From a virus (taxonomy: Duplodnaviria > Heunggongvirae > Uroviricota > Caudoviricetes), in IMG/VR virus record IMGVR_UViG_2529292834_000017: DNA of 14,968 nt, one strand, 5' to 3'. Under the pieces are notes generated by a model. It was not told where the DNA came from, made no database searches, and saw nothing but the letters and a program-made list of their open reading frames with translations. How positions within the stretch are numbered: position 1 is the stretch's first letter; each line of letters starts with the position of its first letter. The translations under genes and the position numbers were made by a program. This document shows, in pieces, positions 1-14,474 of this stretch.

Positions 1-1269
1 ATGCCAAAACTCACAGATATGCAGATCCGCGCATGGATAAAGGCGGGAGACAGATTTGATGGCAAGGCAGACGGCAACGGCCTTTATATTTGCTACCCCA
101 AAAACTACACAGTCCCGTTCTGGCGATTCCGATATAAGCTCGCAGGAAAACAGCGGGCTATGGTTATCGGCTCTTACTCCGAACTGTCACTATCAAAAGC
201 CAGAGAAACAGCAAAAGAGCTGTCAGCCAGAGTTGCTCTTGGCTATGACGTAGCAGCAGAAAAACAGGAACGAAAAGCTGAAGCACTGGCAAAAATGGAG
301 GCTGAGAAAAACGCCATGCGCGTTTCAGATCTGGCCGCCGAATACTTCGAGCGACAGATACTTCCGAGATGGAAACATCCCGATATCCTTCGCCGGAGAA
401 TTGATAAGGATATTAACCCCTGCATTGGGCATATGAAGGTAGAGGACGTTAAGCCACGTCACATTGACGACATGTTAAAAGGTATCGTTGACCGAGGAGC
501 ACCAACGATAGCAACAGATGTATTACGCTGGACACGCCGTATCTTTGACTATGGGATAAAACGCCACGCTCTGGAGATAAACCCTTGTTCAGCGTTTGAA
601 GTATCTGATGCTGGTGGTAAAGAGGTTTCCCGCGACCGTTGGCTAACTCGCGATGAGCTTATCAGGCTATTCGAGGCTATGCGCACCGCAAAAGGATTCA
701 GCCGCCAGAACGAACTGACATTTAAGCTATTGCTGGCACTATGCGTTCGTAAGATGGAGTTATGCGCCGCACGATGGGAAGAGTTTGATTTAGATGGTGC
801 GGTATGGCATTTGCCGGAAGAACGCAGCAAAAACGGAGACCCTATTGATATACCTCTACCTTCCCCAGCCGTTGAATGGTTGAGAGAGCTACACACCTTT
901 TCATGTAATAGCGCATGGGTGCTTCCGGCCAGGAAGATGCAAAACAGAATGATCCCACATATTCAGGAAAGCACTTTACCCGTAGCACTGGCTAAGGTTC
1001 GCGCCGAAATGCCGGATGTGCCTAATTTCACGATTCACGACTTCCGACGCACCGCACGTACTCATTTAGCAGCATTGGGTGTTGATCCTGTCGTGGCGGA
1101 ACGATGCCTCAATCATCGCATTAAGGGCGTAGAGGGGATTTATAACCGTCATCAGTATTTTGATGAGCGTAAAGCAGCACTGGCACAGTGGGCAGATCTG
1201 CTGGTGGCACTGGAAAGCGGGAAAGACTACAACGTAACGCCATTCGATAAAGCCCGGAGGCAAATGTGA
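1..1269 (+). CDS. int: Site-specific tyrosine recombinase, P4-type integrase
   Basis: 422-aa ORF starting at base 1. N-terminus (LTDMQIRAW...GNGLYICYPKN...WRFRYKLAGKQRAMVIGSYSELSLSKARE) fits the arm-binding domain pattern of P4-family integrases. C-terminal region carries the recombinase signature: Arg in LLLALCVRKMEL, HDFRRTA (H-x-x-R), LNH, and GIYNRHQY containing the catalytic Tyr. Family assignment from remembered hallmarks, not a database search. Confidence 0.93.
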   Translation: MPKLTDMQIRAWIKAGDRFDGKADGNGLYICYPKNYTVPFWRFRYKLAGKQRAMVIGSYSELSLSKARETAKELSARVALGYDVAAEKQERKAEALAKMEAEKNAMRVSDLAAEYFERQILPRWKHPDILRRRIDKDINPCIGHMKVEDVKPRHIDDMLKGIVDRGAPTIATDVLRWTRRIFDYGIKRHALEINPCSAFEVSDAGGKEVSRDRWLTRDELIRLFEAMRTAKGFSRQNELTFKLLLALCVRKMELCAARWEEFDLDGAVWHLPEERSKNGDPIDIPLPSPAVEWLRELHTFSCNSAWVLPARKMQNRMIPHIQESTLPVALAKVRAEMPDVPNFTIHDFRRTARTHLAALGVDPVVAERCLNHRIKGVEGIYNRHQYFDERKAALAQWADLLVALESGKDYNVTPFDKARRQM

Positions 1270-3059: not shown

Positions 3060-3893
3060 ATGAACATCGAAAAAAGCAGATTAATTTCTGAGGCCGCCCC
3101 TCATCTGAACGCCTCTCTGGGCACAATTAACGGTAATGAATTTGCCGCAATTGTCCCGGTTATTTCTGGTCATATAGGCGGGCGTGAAACCAATATTGTT
3201 AGCGCAAAAGCGTTACACAAAGCGTTGGGCGTGGGAAAAGACTTCTCTACATGGATCACTGATCGCATCTCTGAATATGACTTCACCATTGGGCACGATT
3301 ACTCAGTCCATAAAACAATTTCCCCAAATTTGGGGAAAAGCCCGAATGACGCGGCTTACAGCAAGATTAAGCAGTCTGGCAGACCCGGCAAAGACTATCT
3401 GTTAAGTGTCGGAATGGCGAAAGAACTGGCAATGATCGAACGCAATGATCAGGGTCGCGCTATCCGCCGTTATTTCATCCAGTGCGAGAAAGAATTACAG
3501 CGTAGCGTGCCTGAAATCGCCGCCCGCTATCGTCGCCAGCTAAAAGCCCGTATCAGTGCCGCAAACAACTTCAAGCCAATGTGCGATGCGCTGAATATGG
3601 CCCGTGCCGAGATGGGGAAAACGACGCAGCAACACCACTACACAAACGAGAGCAATATGATTTCTCGTATCGTTCTTGGTGGGCTAACTGCTAAGCAGTG
3701 GGCGCGGATAAATGGCTATTCTGGCGAACCTCGCGACCATATGAACGCAGAACAGCTTGAGCACCTCTCATATCTCGAAAGCACCAATATCACGTTAATT
3801 GATATGGGCATGGAATATGAGCAGCGCAAAGGAGAACTCACCCGCCTGTCGCAACGCTGGCTCGCCAAGCGTCTGGAGGCGGTCCATGTTTAA
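3060..3893 (+). CDS. Phage antirepressor-like protein (AntA/AntB-type N-terminal domain)
   Basis: 277-aa ORF with SD ACGGAG upstream. N-terminal segment IVSAKALHKALGVGKDFSTWITDRISEYDFTIGHDY fits the AntA-type pattern (A..LH..LGV...FS.WI..RI..Y.F.EG.D) as I remember it. Product call is moderate; coding call is good. Confidence 0.75.
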   Translation: MNIEKSRLISEAAPHLNASLGTINGNEFAAIVPVISGHIGGRETNIVSAKALHKALGVGKDFSTWITDRISEYDFTIGHDYSVHKTISPNLGKSPNDAAYSKIKQSGRPGKDYLLSVGMAKELAMIERNDQGRAIRRYFIQCEKELQRSVPEIAARYRRQLKARISAANNFKPMCDALNMARAEMGKTTQQHHYTNESNMISRIVLGGLTAKQWARINGYSGEPRDHMNAEQLEHLSYLESTNITLIDMGMEYEQRKGELTRLSQRWLAKRLEAVHV

Positions 3894-4068
3894 GCCGACA
3901 GGAACACCACAACCTCAAAAACGCTACAAAGATGCCCACGGAGCACTCGTTACTGTCGAAAGCGTGTCTCACAACCGAGTGACGTTTTATCGCGACGGGT
4001 ATCAATCGCCATGCGTACAACCGCTGGCACGTTTCATGAAGGAGTTCGCGGAGGTTAACAAATGCTAA
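3886..4068 (+). CDS. Small hypothetical protein (60 aa), coupled to upstream gene
   Basis: ATG at 3886 overlaps the stop of the upstream gene (ATGTTTAA), the same overlap style as the other junctions in this operon. Protein [60 protein letters not shown]. The ORF track extends to 3799 but that would overlap the upstream gene by 95 nt. Confidence 0.5.
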   Translation: MFKPTGTPQPQKRYKDAHGALVTVESVSHNRVTFYRDGYQSPCVQPLARFMKEFAEVNKC

Positions 4069-5129
4069 CCGCCCAGAAGAAGATATTTTCACTGGCTGGT
4101 ATGTCGCCAAAATCCAGCAATATGACAGCAAAGTCAGACATTAATACAGCAGATACAAGCAAAGTTTATCATTTGCTGGTGGTAGGAGCGGATGCCTTAA
4201 CTATGTCAGAAATTACGGTCGATGGTGTTAGCGTTGAGAAGGTCAGCGGCTATGCCAGAGAATTTCTGGTCGTAGATGGCTTTCTCTGCTCGTGTAGTGA
4301 CTCCACAAAAACCTTCGTCCACGCGCGTGACGTTAACGAAATGAGCGCGATGTACTGTGCTTCTGGTTCTTCCAATAGTGAGTTTTCGGAGTCCATAAAA
4401 AAGAGCTTGCCGTTATGCGGCAACACGGTTTATGGTTATAAGGCACCTCATAAAACGGGTGCCGGGATTGGCGTCCTAAAAATTCTGAAGGCGACATATG
4501 ACGCGCCAAGCGTCTTTTTTTATGTCGTAGGTCTGACTCACCCATTTTTTGGGCGTTGGTGTATAATCCAGCGCCTTTGTCAATCAATGGTGGCTCAGGC
4601 GGGGGCTTCTTCGGAAGCGCCGGTATCCTTCAGAGCCGGTTACGCCAACCCTGTCTGGGCTACCACCAGCGAAATTGGCGTTTCCGGTGGTAGCGTAACC
4701 TGCTATCTGAAGGAGGCTGCCACATGCTGGCTACTACCCCTACCCAAAAAACGCAATTTATCTGGATTATCGCCGCAGTTCGCCGCGATTGCCCGACAAT
4801 TACCGCCAAAATTCATCATATTGCTGCCGAGTCTGAACGCGATGCTCGCCGTTCTCTGGTGCGCGATCACGTCTGCTTTTTTGCTGGTCGTATCCGCATG
4901 GAGGTGGCACATGATTAAAACCTACGATGTGCATATGGATCCCCTCGAACGCACAAGCCAGATCATCACACTGACAGAAGTGATTAACGACATTCTGGTG
5001 AGCAACTCTCCCTCACGAGACGAAAGACTGAAGGCGTTACTCGCGATATTGGATCTCGCCGTTCGTGACGTTCATTTCCTGCTGGAAGGTGGCGAAATGC
5101 CAGTAAAAACGGGGGCAACCAATGAATAA
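4062..5129 (+). CDS. Questionable 355-aa ORF, probably not one gene
   Basis: The first ~145 codons (4062 to ~4500) look protein-like. The ORF then reads through a hairpin+U7 terminator (4500-4521), a perfect TATAAT (4562-4567), a UUCG-tetraloop hairpin and a 9-bp hairpin, and the SD/ATG of a better ORF in another frame (4724). Its last 72 codons coincide with the separate gene 4911-5129. An annotation pipeline could still call it as one hypothetical protein. Confidence 0.3.
4381..4403 (+). promoter_or_regulatory. Copy 1 of conserved promoter-proximal motif AGTTTT-N2-GAGTCCATAAAAAA (putative early-operon promoter element)
   Basis: GAGTCCATAAAAAA at 4389-4402 is identical to 10237-10250 (14/14), with matching AGTTTT upstream in both. 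Followed by a perfect palindrome TTGCCG-N5-CGGCAA (4406-4422) and, about 100 nt downstream, a hairpin terminator. Confidence 0.35.
4500..4521 (+). terminator. Intrinsic terminator-like hairpin in the immunity leader (timm-like)
   Basis: GACGC-GCCAA-GCGTC stem-loop followed by TTTTTTT. Immediately preceded by TCTGAAGG (4484-4491), a seqA-like target complementary to 4628-4635. Confidence 0.45.
4530..4567 (+). promoter_or_regulatory. Sigma70-type promoter with perfect -10 TATAAT (4562-4567), weak -35
   Basis: TGTATAAT at 4560-4567. No good -35 hexamer at 17 bp, so activity is uncertain. Confidence 0.35.
4568..4700 (+). ncRNA. Candidate P4 CI / P1 C4-type antisense immunity RNA region (boundaries approximate)
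   Basis: Non-coding leader with a GCTTC-TTCG-GAAGC tetraloop hairpin (4605-4618) and a 9-bp perfect stem GCTACCACC/GGTGGTAGC (4659-4667 with 4686-4694). TCCTTCAGA at 4627-4635 is perfectly complementary to TCTGAAGGA at 4706-4714, which overlaps the SD (AGGAGG 4711-4716) of the Icd-like gene, and 8/8 complementary to 4484-4491. Family membership would need a covariance-model search. Confidence 0.4.
4724..4918 (+). CDS. Icd/Kil-like small protein (cell-division-inhibitor family of P1 icd / P4 kil position)
   Basis: 64-aa ORF with SD AAGGAGG (4706-4712). Motif [10 protein letters not shown]...[25 protein letters not shown] resembles Icd-like proteins as I remember them. Its stop overlaps the next ATG (ATGATTAA). 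Sits immediately downstream of the antisense-RNA-like leader, as in P1 immI and P4 immunity regions. Confidence 0.55.
   Translation: MLATTPTQKTQFIWIIAAVRRDCPTITAKIHHIAAESERDARRSLVRDHVCFFAGRIRMEVAHD
4911..5129 (+). CDS. Small hypothetical protein (72 aa), translationally coupled
   Basis: ATG at 4911 preceded by GGAGGTG; overlaps the upstream stop and the downstream start (ATGAATAA at 5122). Protein [32 protein letters not shown]... Confidence 0.5.
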   Translation: MIKTYDVHMDPLERTSQIITLTEVINDILVSNSPSRDERLKALLAILDLAVRDVHFLLEGGEMPVKTGATNE

Positions 5130-6401: not shown

Positions 6402-8753
6402 ATGCGAAACATTGATCTTATCCGTCAGGTTATCAGTGCGTCTGAAAACAACTGGCCTCATGTGCTGGACTGCCTGAACATAAATGTCCCTGACTCTCCG
6501 CGCCGTCATGCTCCCTGCCCTGCATGTGGGGGCAAAGATCGATTCCGGTTCGATGACAACGGGCGCGGTAGCTTCATCTGTAATCAGTGCGGCGCTGGTG
6601 ATGGGCTGGATTTAATTAAACGCGTAAATAACTGCGACACAACAGAGGCGGCGCTTCTTGCCGCTGATGTTCTGGGTATTGATTACCGGACAACGGAAAC
6701 ACCAGAAGCCACCAGCCAGAAACGGGAACAACTGGAAACCGAGCGCCAGCGACGCGAACAGGAGCGCCTGAAAAGGGCAGAGAAGGACGAACAACAAAGA
6801 CGGGATACGTTTTCCCGTCAGTTTGATGACATGCGCAGAAAGGCTGTAAACGGCAAATCTGATTATCTGGTTGCGAAAGGGGTAGGTGATTTTACATTCC
6901 CTGTGTTGCCCGATGGATCTCTGTTGCTGGCGCTGGTGGATAAATCCGGCGCAGTCACAGCAGCACAGACTATTACCTCACATGGTGAAAAAAGACTCCT
7001 GACAGGTTCAGCAAAGCGAGGGGCATATCACGCCATAAACGCACAGAAACGACCTCACAGCATCATAATTGCTGAGGGGGTGGCTACCGCCCTGTCGTGC
7101 CATTTAATTCGCCCTGACGCAATGACAGTGGCAGCAATCGACGCTGGCAACCTGTTGCCAGTAGCGGAAGTCATGCGCAGAACATATCCACAGGCACAAA
7201 TCATCATTGCCGCAGATAACGATCACCAGCAAGGAAACTCCGAAAGTGGAGGGATCAACACGGGGAAAGATGCCGCAGAGAGGGCCGCTATTTCCGTAGC
7301 TGGCTGGGTGTCTCTGCCACCGACTGACTATAAAGCCGACTGGAACGACTATCACCAACAACACGGGCTGGCGGCAGCCACAGCAGCATTTAAAGATTCG
7401 ATGTACCAGCCACGGGGGAAAGGGGCGCAGGTGAAAAATCACAAACAGTCAGTCGGGGCGCTGAATGAGATCAGTTCTGGCGAGGTGTTAAGCGATGATG
7501 AAATTGCTGTCCTCGAAGAAATCAACCGGACGTTTACGCATGTCACCATCGGCGGGAAACACAAGGTGGTGTCGCTAAAGCCTTCTCAAACCGGCGGTGT
7601 ATCGCACGTTTTCGAGGATTTATCACAATTTCAGCATTATTTTCATCATAAACCGAGAGTCGCCAGAAAGCTGGCGGGATCGGCGTGGCTGTCATGGAGT
7701 GGGAAGAACTACAAGCCAGGAGGCGTAGGATTTTATCCAGTACCAGACAAATGCCCTGACGATGTTTTTAATCTGTATGAGGGGCTGGCACTGGAACCAA
7801 TTGAAGGAGATTGCACGGTATACCTTAATCACCTGTTGCAGGTTGTCTGTGCCGGTAATGAAGAGGCATACCAATATCTTATCCAGTGGATGGCGCACAT
7901 TATCCAAAAGCCTGATGAAAAACCGTCCGTGGCAATCGTGATGAAATCTGTCCCGGGCACAGGGAAAGGCACAACGGTTAAACCGCTGCTGCAAATACTG
8001 GGGCAGTACGCCGCCCACATTAACGGGGCGGGACATATTTCAGGGCGCTTCAATTCAATACTTGCTAACAAGCTACTGGTATTTGCTGACGAAGTGACGA
8101 TCCACAAGCCGTCTGAAGCTGACAGACTTAAAGCGATTATTAGCGAACCGACGTTTAACCTTGAGCGCAAGGGAATTGATGCTGAACCAATGCCGAATTT
8201 TGCCCGGTTGATATTTGCCAGTAACAGCACACAGGTATTACAGGCAGGGATAAGAGAGCGCCGCTATCTCGTGCTTGAGCCATCTCCTGAAAAAGCACAG
8301 AGCCGGGAGTATTTTGATCGGCTGTACAGTTGGCTTAATGATGGCGGTGCCGCAAAGTTGCTTTGGCATCTTAAAGGGGTGGATCTCTCAGGTTTTGACC
8401 CTCAACGAGCGCCACAGACCGATGCCTTACGTGAAGAAATCTTGCTGGGGCTGTCTGGCGTTGAATTGTTTCTTTATGGCGAGCTAATCAATGAACCTCC
8501 GTTTAATGGCGAAGTCCGTTTGTTTGCAAAGGATATGGTTAGTCGATTTGTAGCGTGGTCGCTTGAGCGTGGGGAAAAGCTTAAAGAACCAGCTGCCAGA
8601 TCACTACTGGGTAAATCACTTGCACAAATGGGGCTGGTGAAGCATGGAAGACCAGACCGAGGGAATGGCGTGTTCTACGAACTACCAGAGGTCGGAGTTC
8701 TACAGGCTGCGTTTGCCCGTCTGATCGGTATGGGGGGGTATGATGTTTTTTAA
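6402..8753 (+). CDS. P4 alpha-type bifunctional DNA primase / SF3-like helicase (zinc ribbon + Toprim + D5/P4-family NTPase)
   Basis: 783-aa ORF with SD GGGGGC. N-terminal zinc ribbon CPACGGKDRFRFDDNGRGSFICNQCGAGDGLDLI (CxxC...CxxC), near-diagnostic of P4-alpha-like primases. Toprim-like IIIAEGVATAL and AADNDHQ (DxD). P-loop-like SVPGTGKGTT, Walker B-like LLVFADEV, sensor-like LIFASNS. Size matches P4 alpha (777 aa). Confidence 0.93.
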   Translation: MRNIDLIRQVISASENNWPHVLDCLNINVPDSPRRHAPCPACGGKDRFRFDDNGRGSFICNQCGAGDGLDLIKRVNNCDTTEAALLAADVLGIDYRTTETPEATSQKREQLETERQRREQERLKRAEKDEQQRRDTFSRQFDDMRRKAVNGKSDYLVAKGVGDFTFPVLPDGSLLLALVDKSGAVTAAQTITSHGEKRLLTGSAKRGAYHAINAQKRPHSIIIAEGVATALSCHLIRPDAMTVAAIDAGNLLPVAEVMRRTYPQAQIIIAADNDHQQGNSESGGINTGKDAAERAAISVAGWVSLPPTDYKADWNDYHQQHGLAAATAAFKDSMYQPRGKGAQVKNHKQSVGALNEISSGEVLSDDEIAVLEEINRTFTHVTIGGKHKVVSLKPSQTGGVSHVFEDLSQFQHYFHHKPRVARKLAGSAWLSWSGKNYKPGGVGFYPVPDKCPDDVFNLYEGLALEPIEGDCTVYLNHLLQVVCAGNEEAYQYLIQWMAHIIQKPDEKPSVAIVMKSVPGTGKGTTVKPLLQILGQYAAHINGAGHISGRFNSILANKLLVFADEVTIHKPSEADRLKAIISEPTFNLERKGIDAEPMPNFARLIFASNSTQVLQAGIRERRYLVLEPSPEKAQSREYFDRLYSWLNDGGAAKLLWHLKGVDLSGFDPQRAPQTDALREEILLGLSGVELFLYGELINEPPFNGEVRLFAKDMVSRFVAWSLERGEKLKEPAARSLLGKSLAQMGLVKHGRPDRGNGVFYELPEVGVLQAAFARLIGMGGYDVF

Positions 8754-8782: not shown

Positions 8783-8795
8783 ACCTGTACCACCT
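8783..8795 (-). repeat. Single iteron-like copy (reverse complement AGGTGGTACAGGT) 30 bp after the primase stop
   Basis: ACCTGTACCACCT on the + strand matches 13/14 of the GGTGGTACAGGTGG repeat clustered at 9809-9911. Confidence 0.45.
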
Positions 8796-8844
8796 ATACC
8801 ATTAACAAACGCATTTCTTCTGGCTGGCTGAGAGGGAACAACCA

Positions 8845-9075
8845 ATGATGAGCACACCATTTTACAAAGTGCGCCAGTTAGCTTCTTCCTCTGGCTGGCA
8901 GCTACGGTTTGAGGGGCGTTCAGACTGGCTACCCATTGCGGCATGGGCGAATGTTGAAATGTGTATTGACGGCGATACCGTTGAAATCATTATTCCCTGC
9001 GTGGCAAGTCGGGACGGCTGTATAGAGCCAACAGATATGGCAGCAGAAATCAGAGAGGTAAAACATGAACAATAA
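8845..9075 (+). CDS. Hypothetical protein (76 aa)
   Basis: SD GAGAGGGAA before the ATG at 8845. Overlaps the next gene by 11 nt. No recognisable motif. Confidence 0.55.
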   Translation: MMSTPFYKVRQLASSSGWQLRFEGRSDWLPIAAWANVEMCIDGDTVEIIIPCVASRDGCIEPTDMAAEIREVKHEQ

Positions 9076-9802
9076 CTATTGCATACTGCAGGGAATGACC
9101 AGAACGGAGCGCGAAGAATTAAAAAGTTTCGCTACACAGTGCGGGAATGCTGGCGACATCCAAAGTCTGGAACGCACTTTAATTATGATTGCGCACTGGA
9201 TGCGCCAGGGGCAAAGAGTTTCATTTACTGAATATGCCAGCCAGTGGACAGAGGCACAGCGCGAACGGAGCGACGGTAATCACTCAACACCCGAAATGGC
9301 GAAGCAATGGCCTTTCAGTGGTAAACGCTGTATCAGTCCCGGTGGTTCAGATTATTACCCTGCTGGTGTGGGAGATGAGCCATGTTGTGACGAGACTGAA
9401 ATCCGCCACGCAGTGACAGTAATTACCGCTGAATACCCACAATTTAACCTTGACGGACTGGCGCTCCACAACCGGAATGCGGACTGGGAAAACCCGCTTG
9501 ATAACCCGTCATTTATCGTATCGGCGAAAAGCTGCCTGAGATGGATCAGAGACAACGGGATGAGTAATGCCCAGATTGAGAGCTTCCCGCAGGATAACCC
9601 CACATCTGACACGTTGAAGCATGAAGTGGAGCGATATAACCAGATAAACCACCAGCACAGTGATCACCCGCACTATATCCCCAACGGAGCATTTATTGCG
9701 GCGATGGTGGCAAGCGGCTACAAGGTTAAGCCAGCGGGAAGAATGAACGCATTTTTCAATATTTCAAAAAAGGGATTATGTGCTGCTATGGGTAAAAATT
9801 AA
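9065..9802 (+). CDS. Hypothetical protein (245 aa), Cys/His-containing
   Basis: SD GAGAGG before the ATG at 9065. Contains CCDETEIRH and HQHSDHPHY segments. No recognisable family. Confidence 0.65.
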   Translation: MNNNYCILQGMTRTEREELKSFATQCGNAGDIQSLERTLIMIAHWMRQGQRVSFTEYASQWTEAQRERSDGNHSTPEMAKQWPFSGKRCISPGGSDYYPAGVGDEPCCDETEIRHAVTVITAEYPQFNLDGLALHNRNADWENPLDNPSFIVSAKSCLRWIRDNGMSNAQIESFPQDNPTSDTLKHEVERYNQINHQHSDHPHYIPNGAFIAAMVASGYKVKPAGRMNAFFNISKKGLCAAMGKN

Positions 9803-9808
9803 ATAAAT

Positions 9809-9911
9809 GGTACAGGTCTGTACAGGTGGGGAGAGGTCATTTTTACCCACCTGTACCACCTGCAGGCCGCGCCACACAAGGGTTTGTGACATGGTGGTAC
9901 AGGTGGTACAG
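9809..9911. repeat. Iteron cluster: at least 3 copies of GGTGGTACAGGTGG in both orientations, including an 11-bp perfect inverted repeat; candidate replication origin / crr-like site
   Basis: GGTACAGGT at 9809-9817; GTACAGGTGGG at 9820-9830 is perfectly inverted to CCCACCTGTAC at 9846-9856 (15-nt spacer); GGTGGTACAGGTGGTACAG at 9893-9911. Non-coding position downstream of the primase-helicase. The origin role is inference by analogy to P4 alpha binding iterons in ori/crr. Confidence 0.5.
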
Positions 9912-10228
9912 CAAAAACAGCGATTTTCTTTATAAGGTATGTTTTGCTCATCTGGCAGACGGAGGTATTCGCTGCGGTTTGGCACATAGCCCAGAACAGC
10001 AAAGAGTTTTACGAGACTTTTGTAAAATCCAGTGTACAAGGGCGTGACGTTTTTGAAGGTGAGCACTACGAAATTTTCGTAGTTCAAAAAATAGCCTCTG
10101 AGATGTTGTTATGCCTGTTCAGCAAACCATCCGCATAGCTGATCGCGAATCAAATTACCAATGGAGCCAGAAGCAAGGGCAGAACTGGAAAGCGCCTGCC
10201 GTGAAGAGTAATGCGACTCCATAAATAT

Positions 10229-10251
10229 AGTTTTTAGAGTCCATAAAAAAA
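10229..10251 (+). promoter_or_regulatory. Copy 2 of conserved motif AGTTTT-N2-GAGTCCATAAAAAA (putative promoter of the cargo operon)
   Basis: 14/14 identity of 10237-10250 with 4389-4402, plus matching upstream AGTTTT. A degenerate third copy GACTCCATAAA is at 10215-10225. Followed within 30 nt by a strong hairpin terminator. Confidence 0.35.
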
Positions 10252-10276
10252 CTGTCAAAACCTGACATACAGAACG

Positions 10277-10309
10277 ATGCCACCAGCTACTGAACGGTGG
10301 CATTTTTTT
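10277..10309 (+). terminator. Rho-independent terminator / attenuator in the leader of the cargo operon
   Basis: 8-bp stem ATGCCACC / GGTGGCAT (10277-10284 with 10296-10303), 11-nt loop, then a run of 6 T. The ORF-track ATG at 10277 lies inside the stem, so the 100-aa ORF 10277-10579 is an over-extension. Confidence 0.55.
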
Positions 10310-10405
10310 GTGCTATTTGTTTCATATTTTGCAATCACAATGATGAATGTTGCGTTTTATGAAACTATAATGACTGTTGTTTTATACAGTTCTAAGGGGG
10401 GCGTT

Positions 10406-10579
10406 ATGGCTATTTCAGTAAAGCCAGTATTGATAAGTGAGAAGCAAATGGAAGCGATAAAGAAAATTCAGGAGGAGCAGCGTAAAAAATCAGAGGTAGG
10501 AGTTGCGCCAACGATCCACGAAATTGCTCGGGGATTAATGGATAAGGCGCTGGCTTACACTTTAACTGGACGTGGGTAA
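10406..10579 (+). CDS. Small hypothetical protein (57 aa), first gene of the cargo operon
   Basis: Strong SD AAGGGGGG 6 nt before the ATG at 10406. Protein MAISVKPVLISEKQMEAIKKIQEEQRKKSEVGVAPTIHEIARGLMDKALAYTLTGRG, charged and helical-looking. Possible small regulator or partner protein; inference only. Confidence 0.6.
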   Translation: MAISVKPVLISEKQMEAIKKIQEEQRKKSEVGVAPTIHEIARGLMDKALAYTLTGRG

Positions 10580-10583
10580 ATTT

Positions 10584-11927
10584 ATGGCTACGTGGCAACA
10601 GGGTATTAATTCTGGTGGTTTTCTGGCTGGCATCGGTGCGCAAAATGAGAATGCGCCAAAGGCAAGCGACATTAACGCAACGCTTGGTCTGATCCGCGAA
10701 AACAATGAACTGGCTCGCTCAGGTGCAAATAACGTTGCTCTGACAGGTCTTCGTGGTCTGGCTGGAGTTGCTGACATTTATAAGCAGCAGCAACAGCAGG
10801 AACGTAAAGCGGCATTCCAGAAAGGTTATGCAGATGCTTATGCGTCCGGTGACAGGGAGCAGATGCGTAATCTTATTACAGCATTCCCAGAAGAGTTTGA
10901 GGAAGTCCGTAAAGGGATGAGTTATGTCGATGATGCTCAAAGGGATGATTATGGCAATCTGGCGCTCAAAGCACAGGTAGCCTCATCGCTTGGTCAGGGC
11001 GCATTTGGCAGGTTCATGATGGATAATGAGCAGGAGATGCGTCGTTTAGGTATCCCTCCAGAAACTATTGCTGAAATGCAGGTTAATGACCCGCAGGGCT
11101 TCCAGCATTTCGCAGGTAATCTGGCGCTGTTTTCTCTCGGTCATGAGAAGTATTTCGATATCAAAGATCAAATGGAAGGTCGTCGACTTGAGCAAGGGCG
11201 ACTGGATGAAAGTATGCGTCAGGCTGACATGGAGAACGCGAGAGGATGGGCAAATATCCAGAACGCTCAACTAGACAGGGCTCAGCGAGCACAAATTCAC
11301 TCAGATGAGATGGGATTGAAGCTAATGGAGCTGGGGCAAAAAGGTAAGCCGTCAGCAGACTTAATTAAGGGATTAAATTCTGACATTACCAATTTTGGCA
11401 AAAATTATAACTCTGTCAGAGCGGCGGCAAACTCTCTGCAAGCCCTTAGCAAGGTAAATACTGGCGCTGCCCAACTTGGGATTATCTTCAACTACATGAA
11501 ATCTCTTGACCCGCAGTCAGTCGTTCGTGAAGGCGAACAGGTTCAGGTAATGCGGTCTGATGGCATATGGGGACAAATCAAAGGATACATAGACCAGCTT
11601 AATGCTGGAAACGGCCTGTCGCAGGAGGCAAAGGATAACATTGTTAACGCCGCAAAAATCAACGCCAATGCTATGGGGCAGCAGTTTAACCAGCAGGTTG
11701 ACGAGTATCTCGATACATATGGAGAAACTATTCCTCAGGGGCTAAGAAAAAGCCTTGAAAGAAGGAAAGCGAAGCTATTTGACGATGTTTCCGGGCAGCC
11801 TACATCACAGGCTGGCACTGGACAGGCAAAAGCGGCAACCGGAGGAATATCAGAAGGCGCAACGGCAACCAACCCTAAAACTGGTCAGAAAATCATTTAC
11901 AGGAACGGAAAATGGCAGCAAATGTAA
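10584..11927 (+). CDS. Hypothetical coiled-coil-rich protein (~448 aa; 451 aa if GTG 10572 is used) with Gly-rich N-terminus
   Basis: Long ORF with coding-like composition. N-terminal Gly/Ala/Asn-rich segment (GINSGGFLAGIGAQNENAPK), then a Q/E/R-rich probable coiled coil (QADMENARGWANIQNAQLDRAQRAQIH). No Walker, nuclease or other catalytic motif seen. Start ambiguous between GTG 10572 (overlapping the upstream stop) and ATG 10584. Confidence 0.8.
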   Translation: MATWQQGINSGGFLAGIGAQNENAPKASDINATLGLIRENNELARSGANNVALTGLRGLAGVADIYKQQQQQERKAAFQKGYADAYASGDREQMRNLITAFPEEFEEVRKGMSYVDDAQRDDYGNLALKAQVASSLGQGAFGRFMMDNEQEMRRLGIPPETIAEMQVNDPQGFQHFAGNLALFSLGHEKYFDIKDQMEGRRLEQGRLDESMRQADMENARGWANIQNAQLDRAQRAQIHSDEMGLKLMELGQKGKPSADLIKGLNSDITNFGKNYNSVRAAANSLQALSKVNTGAAQLGIIFNYMKSLDPQSVVREGEQVQVMRSDGIWGQIKGYIDQLNAGNGLSQEAKDNIVNAAKINANAMGQQFNQQVDEYLDTYGETIPQGLRKSLERRKAKLFDDVSGQPTSQAGTGQAKAATGGISEGATATNPKTGQKIIYRNGKWQQM

Positions 11928-14029
11928 TCTTACCGGAAGGTTTTGTGCTCGATGAACAACCTGATAACTCACAGTTTCCTGATAGTTCACAGCTTCCTGA
12001 TGGTTTTGTGCTTGATGCCCAACCAGAACAGCAGCAATCACCTTTGGTTTCACCAGAGGAAAATTCCAGACAGGAAAATGTTGTTAATAATGCTAACGGT
12101 TTCGACCGTTTTATGTATGGCGTTCTCAGTGGATTGATGGATGTTGGTAAAGGTGTTGGCCTGTTTCAGGATATGACACCAGAAGAGCAAGCCGCAATTC
12201 AGTCTCTACAGCAGAAGTTAGCGGCAAAACCATCAACCGCACAAGATGTTGGTGAGTTCGTTGGACAAGCAGCGCCATTTGTTAGTGGTGGTGGGATTAT
12301 TTCTCAGGTTCCCAAAGGGGCGGCAAGACTGGCTGCCGCCGCAGGGCTTGGTGCTGGAGAAGGGGCTATTGTAGCCAATGGAACAAATAGCGATGTTGCT
12401 TCCGGCGCTGCTATTGGCGCTGTGGCTGGCCCTGTAGCCGAACTTGCTGGCCCTGCAATTAATAAAATAGCTGGGAAATTAACCAAGAAGAATGTTTCTT
12501 CGATTCCAGATATTGAGGGGATTACTCCTGCCGAAGAGAAAATTCGTAAGTTATCTGCACAAGGCAACCCAAATCTTGCCTCTTCGCTTGAAGGGCTAGA
12601 TCTAAAACCTCAGAAAGAAATTGTTGAGGCTGCAAATAGGCTTCATGTTGATTCAGTTCTTCCTTCTCATTTATCAGGAAATGAGCAATACCAAGCTGTA
12701 GAGCAAGCCCTAAAGTCACGGACAGGATCAGCGTTAAAAGCTCAAGAAGATAAAGCAATAAGCGAATTAGCCTCTAGTGCTGGCAAGATAATCGATGATG
12801 TTGCTGGTGCGCCAGATGCGTTAGCTATGAGCGAAAAATATATTTATCAGATAAATAGTAGAATGGAAGCACTAAAAAACCGTAGTGATCAGTTATATAA
12901 ACGTGTTGATTCCGCTCTATCACCAAGAACAAAAGTCGAAGCAAATAACACAAGCACTATGCTGGAAAAAATCGCTGATGATTTAGGAGGGTGGGATAAT
13001 CTTGACCCAATAGAAAAGCGAGTTTTTACAGCAATAAACCCCGGCCCAGATAGCATCCTAACGTATGCAAATTTAAACAGGCAAAGGCGTTTAGTTGGTG
13101 ATGCCCTAAATAAAAAGCAGGGGCCATACAAAGATGCTGATAAAGAAGCGCTATCAAGACTATATGGAGCTTTAGCTGAAGACCAAAAATCTGTCTTATC
13201 CAATACTGGATACTTGCGAGATTTCGAAGTCGCACAACGCCTTGTAGCTATGAGAAAAAACTTAGAAAGGCAAATGGTAAATCTTCGCGGGAAAACACTT
13301 AATGGGGATATAGCGTATAAAGTAACGAATTCTCTTCAATCTATGGCAAAAGGTGATGCGAGAGGGTTTCGTGAGATTATGCAAAATACTCCATCAAGAA
13401 CATTGCGAAGGGAGCTAGTAGGAACAGCATTAAGAGATATGCTTTCCTCTGGGAAGCGTGGGGCCGACTTTAATCCATCTGGCTTCGCAGATTGGTGGCA
13501 AAACTTGCAACACAGTGGACAGCTAAAGACTTTGGCTGAACATTTGCCAAAAGAAACAATGAGCGGACTATATGATGTATACAAAGTTGCCAGAGCAATA
13601 AAAAATGCTAAAGCGCATGAAATATCTACTGGTAAGCTGAATGAGTTTGTAAACAGATTTAATCGGGTAACAGCTCCATACGAACTAGCAGCAAAACACA
13701 TTCAAAAAATAGGCACGATGGTAGGCGCTCATTTTGGATCGCTTGGAGCCATTGCTGGGGCTGATATTGGAGCAAGATTGGCGAGTAAAGCTCGATTAGC
13801 TGGTGGAGCAGGGGCGGCTGATGCTGCGGATAAATTAATTGCCTCGCCAGCCTTCCAGAGCGCAGTAAAAAATCTACACGGAAAAGCGCCTGGGCACATT
13901 GTTGATTCACGTATCAGGCGCTCCCCTCAATGGAAGAGTTTTTTTAACTCTCTTCCTGAACAGGAAAAACGGACCATCGCCAGACTGGGCATCATTACTT
14001 GGCTATCTAATGATCCAGATAATGACTAG
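11912..14029 (+). CDS. Hypothetical 705-aa protein with N-terminal tandem repeat and Gly/Ala-rich amphipathic segments
   Basis: ATG at 11912 with AGGAA 6 nt upstream; overlaps the end of the upstream gene by 16 nt. N-terminus has a tandem repeat LPEGFVLDEQP / LPDGFVLDAQP. Gly/Ala-rich stretches at residues ~125-180 (AARLAAAAGLGAGEGAIVANG...AIGAVAGPVAELAGPAINKIAGKL) and near the C-terminus (GSLGAIAGADIGARLASKARLAGGAGAADAADKLIASPA). No enzymatic motif recognised. GC content drops sharply after ~12500. Confidence 0.85.
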   Translation: MAANVILPEGFVLDEQPDNSQFPDSSQLPDGFVLDAQPEQQQSPLVSPEENSRQENVVNNANGFDRFMYGVLSGLMDVGKGVGLFQDMTPEEQAAIQSLQQKLAAKPSTAQDVGEFVGQAAPFVSGGGIISQVPKGAARLAAAAGLGAGEGAIVANGTNSDVASGAAIGAVAGPVAELAGPAINKIAGKLTKKNVSSIPDIEGITPAEEKIRKLSAQGNPNLASSLEGLDLKPQKEIVEAANRLHVDSVLPSHLSGNEQYQAVEQALKSRTGSALKAQEDKAISELASSAGKIIDDVAGAPDALAMSEKYIYQINSRMEALKNRSDQLYKRVDSALSPRTKVEANNTSTMLEKIADDLGGWDNLDPIEKRVFTAINPGPDSILTYANLNRQRRLVGDALNKKQGPYKDADKEALSRLYGALAEDQKSVLSNTGYLRDFEVAQRLVAMRKNLERQMVNLRGKTLNGDIAYKVTNSLQSMAKGDARGFREIMQNTPSRTLRRELVGTALRDMLSSGKRGADFNPSGFADWWQNLQHSGQLKTLAEHLPKETMSGLYDVYKVARAIKNAKAHEISTGKLNEFVNRFNRVTAPYELAAKHIQKIGTMVGAHFGSLGAIAGADIGARLASKARLAGGAGAADAADKLIASPAFQSAVKNLHGKAPGHIVDSRIRRSPQWKSFFNSLPEQEKRTIARLGIITWLSNDPDND

Positions 14030-14048: not shown

Positions 14049-14474
14049 TCAATCTTTATTCTTTGAAATAGAGTCATTGATCTTTTCGAAACACCAATGA
14101 AATCCACAAAAGAGAGCTACACCAATATAACAATACAAAACTATCAACCACCTTTCAGTGTCCGAAGGGTAAAAAACATCAATTACATAAGCAACACCAA
14201 TTGGTATTAATGCTAGTAATAACATCGACACAGGACGTACAAACTTCTGAACTATATCAATTTTATAGAACCACAAGGCGGTATGTTTAATGATATAAGT
14301 AAAGATGGCTGCGCCAATAATGGCAAAAAACACCATCGATAAAGTCGGGTATAACTTTGCGACAATTAAACCCAACAAAATAATTATAACTGCCTGCCCC
14401 CTCACACCAACCCTCCCTTTAGCTTTGTTTAGAATGGCAATCATCATATATCCAAGACATGGCATTTGGTACAT
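14049..14474 (-). CDS. Small integral membrane protein (141 aa, ~4 predicted TM helices), low GC
   Basis: Minus-strand ORF convergent with the 705-aa gene. Hydrophobic stretches VIIILLGLIVAKLYPTLSMVFFAIIGAAIFTYII, VSMLLLALIPIGVAYVIDVF and LIVLYCYIGVALFCGF. Very AT-rich codon usage. No clear SD at any of the candidate starts (14474, 14465, 14447). Confidence 0.65.
   Translation of the reverse strand: MYQMPCLGYMMIAILNKAKGRVGVRGQAVIIILLGLIVAKLYPTLSMVFFAIIGAAIFTYIIKHTALWFYKIDIVQKFVRPVSMLLLALIPIGVAYVIDVFYPSDTERWLIVLYCYIGVALFCGFHWCFEKINDSISKNKD

Follow-up and report, generated by a model that had tools for sequence, protein, structure and literature searches.

A P22-type ejection-protein module in an EcCIMP1-like phage-inducible chromosomal island of Escherichia coli

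Satellites are known to act on the capsid size of their helper or on packaging specificity, or to supply capsids or tails, while we know of no satellite strategy that acts on the step of DNA entry. In phage P22, the ejection proteins build the channel through which phage DNA enters the cell, gp20 forming the periplasm-spanning tube of this DNA conduit and gp16 its inner-membrane part. The closest described element to the one studied here is EcCIMP1, a phage-inducible chromosomal island (PICI) of E. coli MP1 that is mobilised by phage Kapi1 (Pick, Stadel and Raivio 2025, PMC11773190), and for which experiments showed excision, circularisation and transduction with this helper only. The same study proposed a packaging role for its 'DNA transfer' genes (PMC11773190). 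A precedent for the control of such genes is operon I of the SaPIs, given as LexA-controlled (Ubeda 2007, as it appears in the reference list of PMC6092414).

The window, by which we mean the whole stretch of 14,968 nucleotides analysed, represents an E. coli island of ~16 kb that lies between yicC and dinD. An earlier reading of this DNA by eye, called here the original prediction, put forward a three-gene operon at positions 10406 to 14029 as the best candidate for an undescribed system, such as anti-phage cargo. We find that the operon is the E-protein (ejection-protein) module of an EcCIMP1-like PICI, that is, it codes for proteins of a familiar kind whose presence on a satellite is unexplained. 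Its large proteins are homologues of P22-type ejection proteins, and the published map of EcCIMP1 already shows such genes, labelled 'DNA transfer', so that the system cannot be called undescribed. What is new here is the conservation of the small 57-aa gene and its promoter, the differing conduit cassettes found behind this gene, and their counts in E. coli.

Relation to satellites and P22-like phages

It was correctly predicted that the operon follows the replication module of a satellite-like element. Of the two kinds named, P4-like or PICI, the element is an EcCIMP1-like PICI. Strictly speaking it is no P4-like satellite, as Pfam scans of all ORFs of the window gave no match to psu, sid or delta. 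It has the characters of Gram-negative PICIs, namely an integrase, an AlpA regulator and a primase/replication module with origin, all in one orientation; its ~16 kb fall within the about 15-20 kb of such islands, and no capsid, terminase or lysis gene was found among the scanned ORFs of the island. With P4-like satellites it has in common the integrase, AlpA, an Ash-family protein and a P4-alpha-type Zn-ribbon/Toprim primase; however, the window implies a P22-like podovirus as helper, not P2.

The core proteins of the window island are 89-100% identical to those of EcCIMP1. Identity is 85-100% over the set made up of a 143-aa protein, AntA, several small proteins, the N-terminus of the primase and the small ORF heading the cassette. 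Both islands also have the same promoter and a PerC gene downstream. The two islands differ in their integrase and attachment site (tRNA-Thr for EcCIMP1, yicC/dinD for the window island) and in the C-terminal domain of the primase, which is DUF927 in the former and DUF5906 in the latter. They also differ in the cassette: EcCIMP1 has four genes, gp14-gp7-gp20 and a 906-aa lytic-transglycosylase gp16, whereas the window has two, a gp20 and gp16 pair of the Kapi1/Sf101 kind, and the corresponding proteins are only 22-25% identical.

Like SaPI operon I, the operon of the window lies downstream of a replication module, has a LexA box in front and codes for homologues or modifiers of helper virion components. 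SaPI operon I, however, targets the size of the capsid and the packaging of DNA (TerS, CpmA/B), whereas the window operon codes for DNA-delivery proteins, and its LexA box is a candidate one. P22-like phages (Lederbergvirus: P22, Kapi1, E212, Sf101, Sf6) have homologous gene 20 and gene 16 proteins, with the same gene order, 16-nt overlap and intragenic mosaicism as the window pair, and P22 has the convergent sieA after gene 16, where the window has a convergent membrane-protein gene. Yet the window pair does not sit in a phage. Portal, coat, gp4/10/26, gp14 and gp7 are missing upstream, and the pair is preceded by the primase, iterons, the small island gene and the LexA-box promoter, whereas P22-like phages have a Q-antiterminated late operon.

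The operon and its proteins

The features of the window are the following:

9808-9912, no strand: cluster of GGTACAGG(T) iterons, direct and inverted, downstream of the primase module
10279-10309, plus strand: intrinsic terminator, GCCACC...GGTGGC stem and T7 (hairpin 10279-10301, T-run 10303-10309)
10329-10353, plus strand: TTGCAAT-N13-(A/G)TTGC, a conserved dyad that spans the -35 region and may bind a regulator
10366-10371, plus strand: -10 hexamer TATAAT, invariant in 21 related loci of seven genera
10374-10389, plus strand: candidate LexA (SOS) box CTGT-N8-ACAG, between the -10 and the ribosome-binding site
10406-10579, plus strand: small gene (57 aa) heading the cassette slot
10584-11927, plus strand: gp20-type ejection protein gene (ATG at 10584; 447 aa; mosaic)
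11912-14029, plus strand: gp16-position ejection protein gene (705 aa; mosaic), for the inner-membrane part of the conduit
14049-14474, minus strand: membrane-protein gene (131/141 aa; four hydrophobic segments) at the sieA position of P22; its product is a candidate exclusion protein

ORF calls gave the three co-oriented, tightly packed ORFs of 57, ~450 and 705 aa that had been described. The ribosome-binding site of the 57-aa ORF is AAGGGGGG, at 10394-10401. An alternative GTG start at 10572 would lengthen protein 2 to 451 aa, and the 447-aa and 705-aa ORFs overlap by 16 nt (11912-11927), as they do in Kapi1. Both large genes are intact and belong to a mosaic gene pool common with P22-like phages.

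By eye the two large proteins indeed have no recognisable motifs, but the profile searches suggested by the original prediction identify them at once, both matching virion ejection proteins. Judged by homology, protein 2 belongs with the ejection proteins of the P22 gp20 type. Its residues 12-219 match Pfam PF16928 (Inj_translocase) with E=2.5e-73 and 246.8 bits, the cut-off (gathering score) being 29.7 bits, and it matches phrog_917 with E=4e-132. It is 75% identical in amino acids to Kapi1 gp20, and residues 1-50 are 96-98% identical to Kapi1 and P22; nucleotide identity with Kapi1 is ~90% over the matching DNA segments, beginning exactly at the gp20 start codon. Protein 3, by the same kind of evidence, is a gp16-position ejection protein, matching phrog_6704 over its full length (E=1.4e-174) and phrog_770, a 'DNA transfer protein' (E=1.2e-50). 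A Pfam-A scan of protein 3 gave no PF26808 match at E<=0.1, and its global identity with P22 gp16 is only 21%. Full-length homologues lie directly after gp20 in Kapi1, E212 and EC.P3, and a C-terminal homologue with 59% identity is also found after gp20 in Sf101. Residues 1-150 are 78-100% identical to Kapi1. Among 5426 E. coli genomes, the C-terminal allele turned up only in the island lineage of the window (87 genomes, all at >=99%). The tandem N-terminal repeat noticed earlier (PEGFVLD at residue 8, PDGFVLD at residue 29) and the Gly/Ala-rich stretches (residues ~101-200 and 601-650) are both present.

These matches bear out what had been offered as a second thought, a membrane-active pilot or ejection function. 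The headline of an undescribed system or anti-phage cargo is not supported. Confident homology to virion proteins of ordinary structural modules, on which it was said to fall, is essentially what we find: it is full-length for protein 3, and for protein 2 it covers the N-terminal domain with 75% overall identity to Kapi1 gp20, the homologues lying in the 14-7-20-16 structural module of P22-like phages.

The 57-aa protein is 87% identical to the 53-aa ORF of EcCIMP1, and its homologues are found in Enterobacterales only, with dN/dS values of 0.03-0.21 for the gene. AF2 predicts an extended N-terminus followed by two helices (pLDDT 75). This topology is the sole feature compatible with ribbon-helix-helix (RHH) proteins, and an RHH-like regulator is only a guess. 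A Pfam search gave no match to ribbon-helix-helix regulators, hhalign against P22 Arc and Mnt gave a probability <1%, and Foldseek and PDB profile searches were empty.

Promoter region and cassette slot

The promoter proposed for the operon exists and is strongly conserved, TATAAT being present in 21/21 related loci; owing to its poor -35, it escaped a consensus promoter scan. The candidate LexA box overlies the expected transcription start and is the sole CTGT-N8-ACAG of the window, where 0.17 are expected. It agrees with the 20-mer consensus at 14/20 positions, and that of Serratia nevei at 17/20. Canonical spacing is kept in Escherichia, Leclercia (L009), Serratia nevei and Erwinia. Relatives in Klebsiella, Raoultella, S. 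silvae and LR-33 have a degenerate form of the box, spaced by N9. In the dyad, the TTGCAAT arm is invariant in a 7-locus alignment and takes variant forms in several loci of the fuller set, the second arm in the window being GTTGC. Promoter and 57-aa gene are conserved together across Enterobacterales, with the invariant TATAAT, CTGT-N8-ACAG and the upstream dyad.

The 'leader terminator' of the original prediction is a real hairpin (-20 kcal/mol with its T-run, z=-5.4) whose position is kept in E. coli and Leclercia islands, but it lies ~60 nt upstream of the -10, and therefore ends the upstream unit and does not belong to the operon leader. The upstream iterons are present as five GGTACAGG-type copies at 9809-9912, the window having 16 such matches against 6.5 expected, and the cluster is the presumed replication origin of the island.

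The 57-aa gene, and with it this island family, is carried by ~9% of complete E. coli genomes (501/5426), and a survey of co-occurrence, as had been proposed, found P22-type E-protein genes directly after it in 471 of the 501. Across seven genera, the slot behind it holds at least six different conduit-type cassettes, made of gp20+gp16, gp14-7-20-16, other podovirus internal proteins or a tape-measure protein, the last being full-length (1050 aa) in Erwinia. From island to island, dN/dS is 0.07-0.24. Together with the E. coli counts and the range of cassettes, this value speaks for selection and not for decay. A few copies of the module are interrupted by IS1 or IS3. Nearly all islands with the 57-aa gene in E. 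coli keep ejection-protein genes under apparent SOS control. The single match to the module region in the source genome is the island copy itself, and therefore any P22-like prophage whose ejection genes are similar enough to be detected is absent from it. Between EcCIMP1 and its proven helper Kapi1, gp14 is 83% and gp7 57% identical, but gp20 and gp16 are 25% identical each, a pattern that counts in favour of the role proposed below.

Possible roles of the module

The reading that we favour, with a probability of roughly 60%, is that ejection proteins made under SOS induction enter helper-built capsids and alter the delivery of satellite DNA, loading and delivery being the steps that we infer. 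LexA would hold the operon off, and DNA damage would induce a P22-like helper prophage and the operon alike, as helper capsids assemble. The helper-like N-terminal parts would take the island gp20 and gp16 into helper-built procapsids, and on infection the pair would be ejected, gp20 as a periplasmic tube and gp16 as an inner-membrane portal for the packaged DNA. Mutations that escape SieA lie towards the C-termini of gp20 and gp16 and not in gp7 (PMC10883804). These regions would be the target of this prophage exclusion protein, and a satellite that brings an allele pair of its own could therefore change the delivery specificity of the particle; the likeliest use would be to enter cells, helper lysogens included, that block helper-type injection. 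The convergent membrane-protein gene at the sieA position is probably of the exclusion type and captured in one block with the ejection genes. Sf6 genes 16 and 20 function in P22 only if swapped together (PMC10883804), and this pair is exactly the two-gene unit of the window.

Some points speak against this reading. Transduction of EcCIMP1 by Kapi1 is very inefficient, with about 5e3 particles/ml (PMC11773190), so that efficient transfer is no obvious effect of the module. The cassette of the window lacks gp7 and gp14 and would depend on compatible helper copies. Virion entry of the island E-proteins is deduced from their homology, and the signal of purifying selection could partly predate capture, having arisen in phages. 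A Kapi1-like prophage is found in only 2/21 EcCIMP1-carrying strains (PMC11773190), and the single module match in the source genome, the degenerate LexA boxes of some relatives and the IS-interrupted copies also weigh against it.

Should these proteins indeed ride in helper particles, this would account for the entry of a satellite into cells where its helper already resides and is excluded, and the islands would offer natural gp20/gp16 allele pairs, as a library, for studies of SieA-type exclusion and podovirus DNA delivery. More tentatively, a widespread enterobacterial satellite family may have, behind the conserved small gene and its promoter, an SOS-controlled 'conduit slot' for interchangeable delivery sets matched to the helper tail. 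Such a set, be it the P22-type gp20/gp16 pair, internal proteins of other podoviruses or the tape-measure protein of a siphovirus, would be loaded into helper-built particles, which would then bypass exclusion of the SieA or Ltp/gp15 type or use different envelope factors. If true, such a slot would amount to molecular piracy of a new kind, at DNA entry and not at capsid size or packaging.

We think it unlikely that the module serves to curb helper spread, island gp20 and gp16 being co-incorporated so that mismatched pairs poison the virion conduit of the helper. Mismatched P22/Sf6 gp16-gp20 combinations are non-functional (PMC10883804), satellites commonly code for interfering homologues of helper structural proteins (PMC11773190), and the island alleles differ strongly from those of the helper. 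However, induced Kapi1 titres are unchanged by EcCIMP1 (PMC11773190), and interference alone leaves the kept full-length co-adapted pairs, the complete 14-7-20-16 sets and the complete tape-measure protein unaccounted for.

Just as doubtful is a host-protective superinfection exclusion, in which the convergent membrane protein, possibly with basal E-proteins, would block the DNA of incoming P22-like phages. EcCIMP1 adds to the superinfection immunity of Kapi1 lysogens and carries no known defence system (PMC11773190), an immunity that exclusion would explain. The 141-aa ORF lies at the sieA position, with the geometry of P22 gene 16/sieA, and its relatives (41-47% identity) are likewise convergent after gene 16 in true P22-like prophages; a sister island has a true SieA. 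The product agrees with SieA only in genomic position and membrane character and is not a SieA homologue, having no BLAST similarity to P22 SieA and no cytoplasmic motif FxRYPxEAxxFNK of SieA types A-C (motif from PMC10883804). Exclusion would account for the convergent gene, but it leaves unexplained why a LexA box should control two large virion proteins that are made in the cytoplasm. Since the E-proteins lack signal peptides, a passage from the cell interior to the periplasm is unlikely.

That a P22-like prophage fragment recombined into the island and stayed as a functionless passenger is improbable. Mosaic genes with phage-identical segments, IS insertions in some copies and the absence of gp7 and gp14 from the window would fit such a relic, but the 447- and 705-aa ORFs are intact and precisely fused to a conserved small gene and promoter, different intact cassettes fill the same slot in seven genera, the E-protein genes are kept in 471/501 E. 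coli elements, and dN/dS is 0.07-0.24. A new anti-phage defence system, the reading first preferred, is very improbable: the accessory position on a satellite and the unexplained immunity phenotype of EcCIMP1 (PMC11773190) would suit it, but the PADLOC-DB protein models matched none of the seven proteins tested (0 families), and both large proteins are homologous to virion proteins of ordinary phage structural modules.

Local annotation is also corrected by these comparisons. RefSeq starts the small gene of the source genome at 10277, giving 100 aa, and uses the 57-aa start in sister islands; the latter is the better one, because the 10277 start sits within the terminator, upstream of the conserved promoter. 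The 'hypothetical' 705-aa protein can be given an ejection function. Finally, sieA-like genes occur outside prophages too, and the SieA carried by one sister island is of a true type-B-like form.

The island and its relation to EcCIMP1

The window comes from the E. coli chromosome, where it belongs to an island of approximately 16 kb, with yicC on one side and dinD on the other; identity between the core proteins of this island and those of EcCIMP1 is 89-100%. EcCIMP1, a PICI found in E. coli MP1, becomes excised, circularises and undergoes transduction only if phage Kapi1, its helper, is present (Pick et al. 2025, PMC11773190). In that report 'DNA transfer' genes are drawn downstream of the primase and it is suggested that they might act in packaging; superinfection immunity was partly EcCIMP1-dependent, which was left unexplained, and Kapi1 titres were unchanged. 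Other than PMC11773190, the literature searched contained no link between satellites and ejection proteins. A P4-like satellite in the strict sense was rejected for this island, since the window lacks psu, sid and delta.

The genes from the integrase through the three-gene operon form a single long series sharing one orientation, and the original prediction had placed the three ORFs of the operon correctly.

Gene layout of the window
1-1269, orientation as operon: integrase
1266-1916: ORF of 216 aa without Pfam, NCBIfam or PADLOC match, overlapping the integrase stop by 4 nt
2398-2616, orientation as operon: AlpA-type HTH protein
3060-3893, orientation as operon: AntA/B antirepressor
4062-5129, orientation as operon: Ash-family protein
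6402-8753, orientation as operon: Zn-ribbon/Toprim/DUF5906 primase
8845-9075, after the primase: ORF of 76 aa without Pfam, NCBIfam or PADLOC match
9065-9802: ORF of 245 aa without Pfam, NCBIfam or PADLOC match, weak PHROG match only (E=7e-4)
Between the 245-aa ORF and the operon: 600-bp spacer with clustered GGTACAGG iterons
10406-10579, + strand: small ORF of 57 aa with a strong ribosome-binding site
10584-11927, + strand: ORF of 447 aa (protein 2)
11912-14029, + strand: ORF of 705 aa (protein 3), overlapping the 447-aa ORF by 16 nt
14049-14474, - strand: convergent membrane-protein ORF, 19 nt beyond the 705-aa ORF

Two more GGTACAGG-type iterons lie at 8784-8800 on the minus strand, just past the primase stop and approximately 1 kb from the main cluster. 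The primase itself (6402-8753) is 85% identical to that of EcCIMP1 (L004, 13422-16178) over residues 1-351, beyond which the C-terminal helicase-type domains are unrelated (DUF5906 in the window versus DUF927 in EcCIMP1). The two islands, in other respects nearly identical, thus differ by a domain swap inside their replication gene.

Phage counterparts of the two large proteins

The operon had been put forward as the best candidate for an undescribed system, a reading that fails because its two large proteins are homologous to virion proteins of the structural modules of ordinary prophages, the kind of homology named beforehand as refuting it. Protein 2 matches the Pfam family Inj_translocase ('DNA/protein translocase of phage P22 injectosome', gp20) at 246.8 bits (E=2.5e-73) and phrog_917 at 4e-132, while protein 3 is matched along its entire length by phrog_6704 (1.4e-174) and also by phrog_770, 'DNA transfer protein' (1.2e-50). 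The DNA of Kapi1, a P22-like phage, is approximately 90% identical to the window from the exact gp20 start codon to a point ~470 nt inside gene 3, and full-length homologues of the gene 3 protein are located behind gp20 in Kapi1, E212, EC.P3 and S.Kent 1-2-1. The C-terminal 500 residues of protein 3 are approximately 59% identical to the protein of Sf101, another P22-like phage. The Inj_translocase and PHROG matches, with the Kapi1 homology, bear out the side suggestion that these are pilot/ejection proteins. P22 has the gene order 14-7-20-16 and, 22 nt further downstream, sieA in convergent orientation, which is the geometry of the window too. Neither protein had a match in sequence searches of solved structures or among the PADLOC models.

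Both proteins are classic mosaics. In gp20 of the window, identity to P22 and Kapi1 is 96-98% over residues 1-50; residues 51-200 match a sister island at 96-100% versus Kapi1 at only 24-58%, and over residues 201-447 identity to Kapi1 is 77-100% (92-100% within the stretch 201-400). Protein 3 is Kapi1-like over residues 1-150 (78-100%) and Sf101-like over residues 201-705 (48-74%). Between EcCIMP1 and Kapi1, the satellite and helper proven to work together, identity is 83% in gp14 and 57% in gp7, but only 25% in each of gp20 and gp16.

The small gene, its promoter and the slot behind it

The small gene belongs to the island rather than to a phage. Its 57-aa protein is 87% identical to the 53-aa ORF heading the EcCIMP1 module, has homologues confined to Enterobacterales, and is under purifying selection (dN/dS 0.03-0.21). 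Pfam, PHROG, NCBIfam and PADLOC searches with this protein were all empty, Foldseek against the PDB returned only noise (E=8), as did a PDB profile search, and hhalign against P22 Arc and Mnt gave a probability below 1%. Because no fold family was assignable, an RHH repressor was dropped as a claim and is here a guess. Since the query is so short, a contig scan with it yielded just 4 loci; the diversity of contexts was taken from a separate search for encoding contigs. The RefSeq ORF WP_014639841.1 (window 10277-10579, 100 aa) has a start that falls within the terminator hairpin and lies upstream of the conserved promoter. In sister islands the annotation uses the 57-aa start, which agrees with the promoter and the ribosome-binding site.

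The promoter of the small gene is conserved in Escherichia, Leclercia, Serratia, Klebsiella, Raoultella and Erwinia, but the flanking sequence is not.

Elements of the operon promoter
10366-10371, + strand: -10 TATAAT, invariant across related loci
Over a poor -35, + strand: dyad TTGCAAT-N13-ATTGC, conserved across genera, with the second arm GTTGC in the window
10374-10389, + strand: putative LexA box CTGT-N8-ACAG, directly after the -10 and the sole such site in the window

The match to the LexA consensus is 14/20 in the window and 17/20 in Serratia nevei, and some relatives from Klebsiella, Raoultella and LR-33 have a box with degenerate spacing. An exact search of the window for TTGCAAT-N(8-16)-ATTGC gave 0 matches, the second arm at the operon promoter being GTTGC, and a generic sigma-70 scan detected no promoter; the operon promoter was recognised solely via its conservation across genera. 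Inspection upstream of the terminator for a mimic of a Q-antiterminated late promoter revealed no convincing -10. The hairpin and T-run at 10279-10309 precede the operon promoter, and are not the leader terminator they had been taken for.

The cargo behind the small gene varies, yet it keeps to one theme.

Cassettes in the slot directly behind the small gene and promoter
gp20 and gp16, two allele types: the window; islands L013-L015; Serratia nevei and S. marcescens
gp14-gp7-gp20 with a lytic-transglycosylase gp16: EcCIMP1, CV839-06, Leclercia
Three large proteins (podovirus internal or virion), one bearing an SLT domain: E. coli LR-33 (L007)
SLT protein (tape-measure-like N-terminus, judged by eye) with Dit: Klebsiella
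Full-length 1050-aa tape-measure protein with a 108-aa protein: Erwinia persicina (L023/L024), 9177-12665, preceded by the same small gene and promoter with LexA box
Truncated tape-measure protein: Serratia silvae (L011)
Exception, 223-aa HEAGH-motif (metallopeptidase-like) protein, followed directly by PerC: E. coli E7 island (L005), 9258-9929
Exception, 605-aa protein of no known kind: Raoultella

The tape-measure cassette of E. persicina implies a siphovirus helper. In LR-33, the three large internal-virion-protein genes are directly followed by a gene (L007, 16535-16918) with the annotation Rap1a/Tai-family immunity protein, whose product might neutralise the peptidoglycan-degrading activity of the SLT-domain cargo.

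Among 5426 complete E. coli genomes, 501 carry the small gene, which is followed by gp20 in 214, by gp14 in 257 and by the peptidase-like gene in 26; the gp20 and gp14 counts therefore mean that approximately 94% of the islands retain P22-type ejection genes in the slot. Island-to-island dN/dS is 0.07-0.24 for all cassette genes and 0.07-0.08 between E. coli and Leclercia islands (at dS 1.0-2.1), a signal of which part may stem from earlier time in phages. A few copies of the module in E. coli genomes are interrupted by IS1 (H1-H4, H121-H122) or IS3 (H150), or are truncated (H149). The other ~80 copies of the window module are intact and at least 99% identical, from human, pig, cattle, poultry and bat hosts. 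Neither the proteins nor the element is of a new kind; what the literature searched does not contain is a slot, conserved and apparently under SOS control, for exchangeable DNA-conduit proteins, carried by satellites of a family that occurs in ~9% of E. coli genomes.

Possible role in DNA delivery and the convergent gene

The proteins gp7, gp20 and gp16 exit the virion and form a trans-envelope DNA conduit, and injection can be prevented by SieA, a protein of the inner membrane (Leavitt et al., mBio 2024, PMC10883804). According to the same authors, SieA-escape mutations are found in gp20 and gp16, within their C-terminal regions, and none in gp7; gp16 and gp20 enter the virion independently of each other; Sf6 genes 16 and 20 function in P22 only if moved as a pair; and siphovirus exclusion proteins analogous to SieA are escaped via tape-measure changes. 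The two-gene unit of the window is exactly the gp20/gp16 pair that must move together between Sf6 and P22, and the tape-measure cassettes of its relatives fit the same exclusion-escape logic.

Homology, operon structure, conservation and the LexA-box motif are established by the sequence. As the most likely reading, we infer a timing of expression, an incorporation into virions and a benefit to the satellite as follows. SOS would derepress the operon as a P22-like helper becomes induced, and the co-adapted island gp20/gp16 pair would enter helper-built capsids via its helper-like N-termini. The particles would gain an altered delivery specificity, most plausibly entering cells that exclude helper-type injection. 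Among the rival readings, a role in host-protective exclusion suits the convergent gene, but suits the two large proteins less well. Interference with the helper through mixed, incompatible conduits is weakened by the unchanged Kapi1 titres. The pattern of conservation contradicts an inert relic, and the homology contradicts a new defence system.

The convergent 131/141-aa ORF next to the proposed delivery genes encodes four hydrophobic segments and is an orphan of narrow distribution. Its relatives (41-47% identity) lie in convergent orientation directly behind gene 16 of true P22-like prophages, one adjoining gp4-10-26-14-7-20-16 and another an Arc/Ant immI region, and are present in sister islands too. 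A tblastn search of the phage collection with the 141-aa ORF gave no match, and weak matches to Bax1-I and CBO0543 were below cut-off and disregarded. Identity as a SieA homologue was rejected because the SieA motif is missing. The E. coli Z1323CEC0009 PICI (L013, 12855-13469) encodes a 204-aa SieA homologue, convergent to the gp16-type gene, with the RYPGEA motif, a type-B-like N-terminal extension and 29% identity to P22 SieA; sieA-like genes have been reported only from P22-like prophages (Leavitt et al., PMC10883804).

The convergent genes of the window (14049-14474) and of the sister islands L014 (12897-13334) and L015 (12898-13338) have their first ~29 codons in common (MIAILNxAKGRVGV...). 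Past this point their bodies are unrelated, with four hydrophobic segments in the window and 145 aa without a predicted membrane segment in L014/L015, a pattern that points to an exchange of cassettes behind a constant 5' end.
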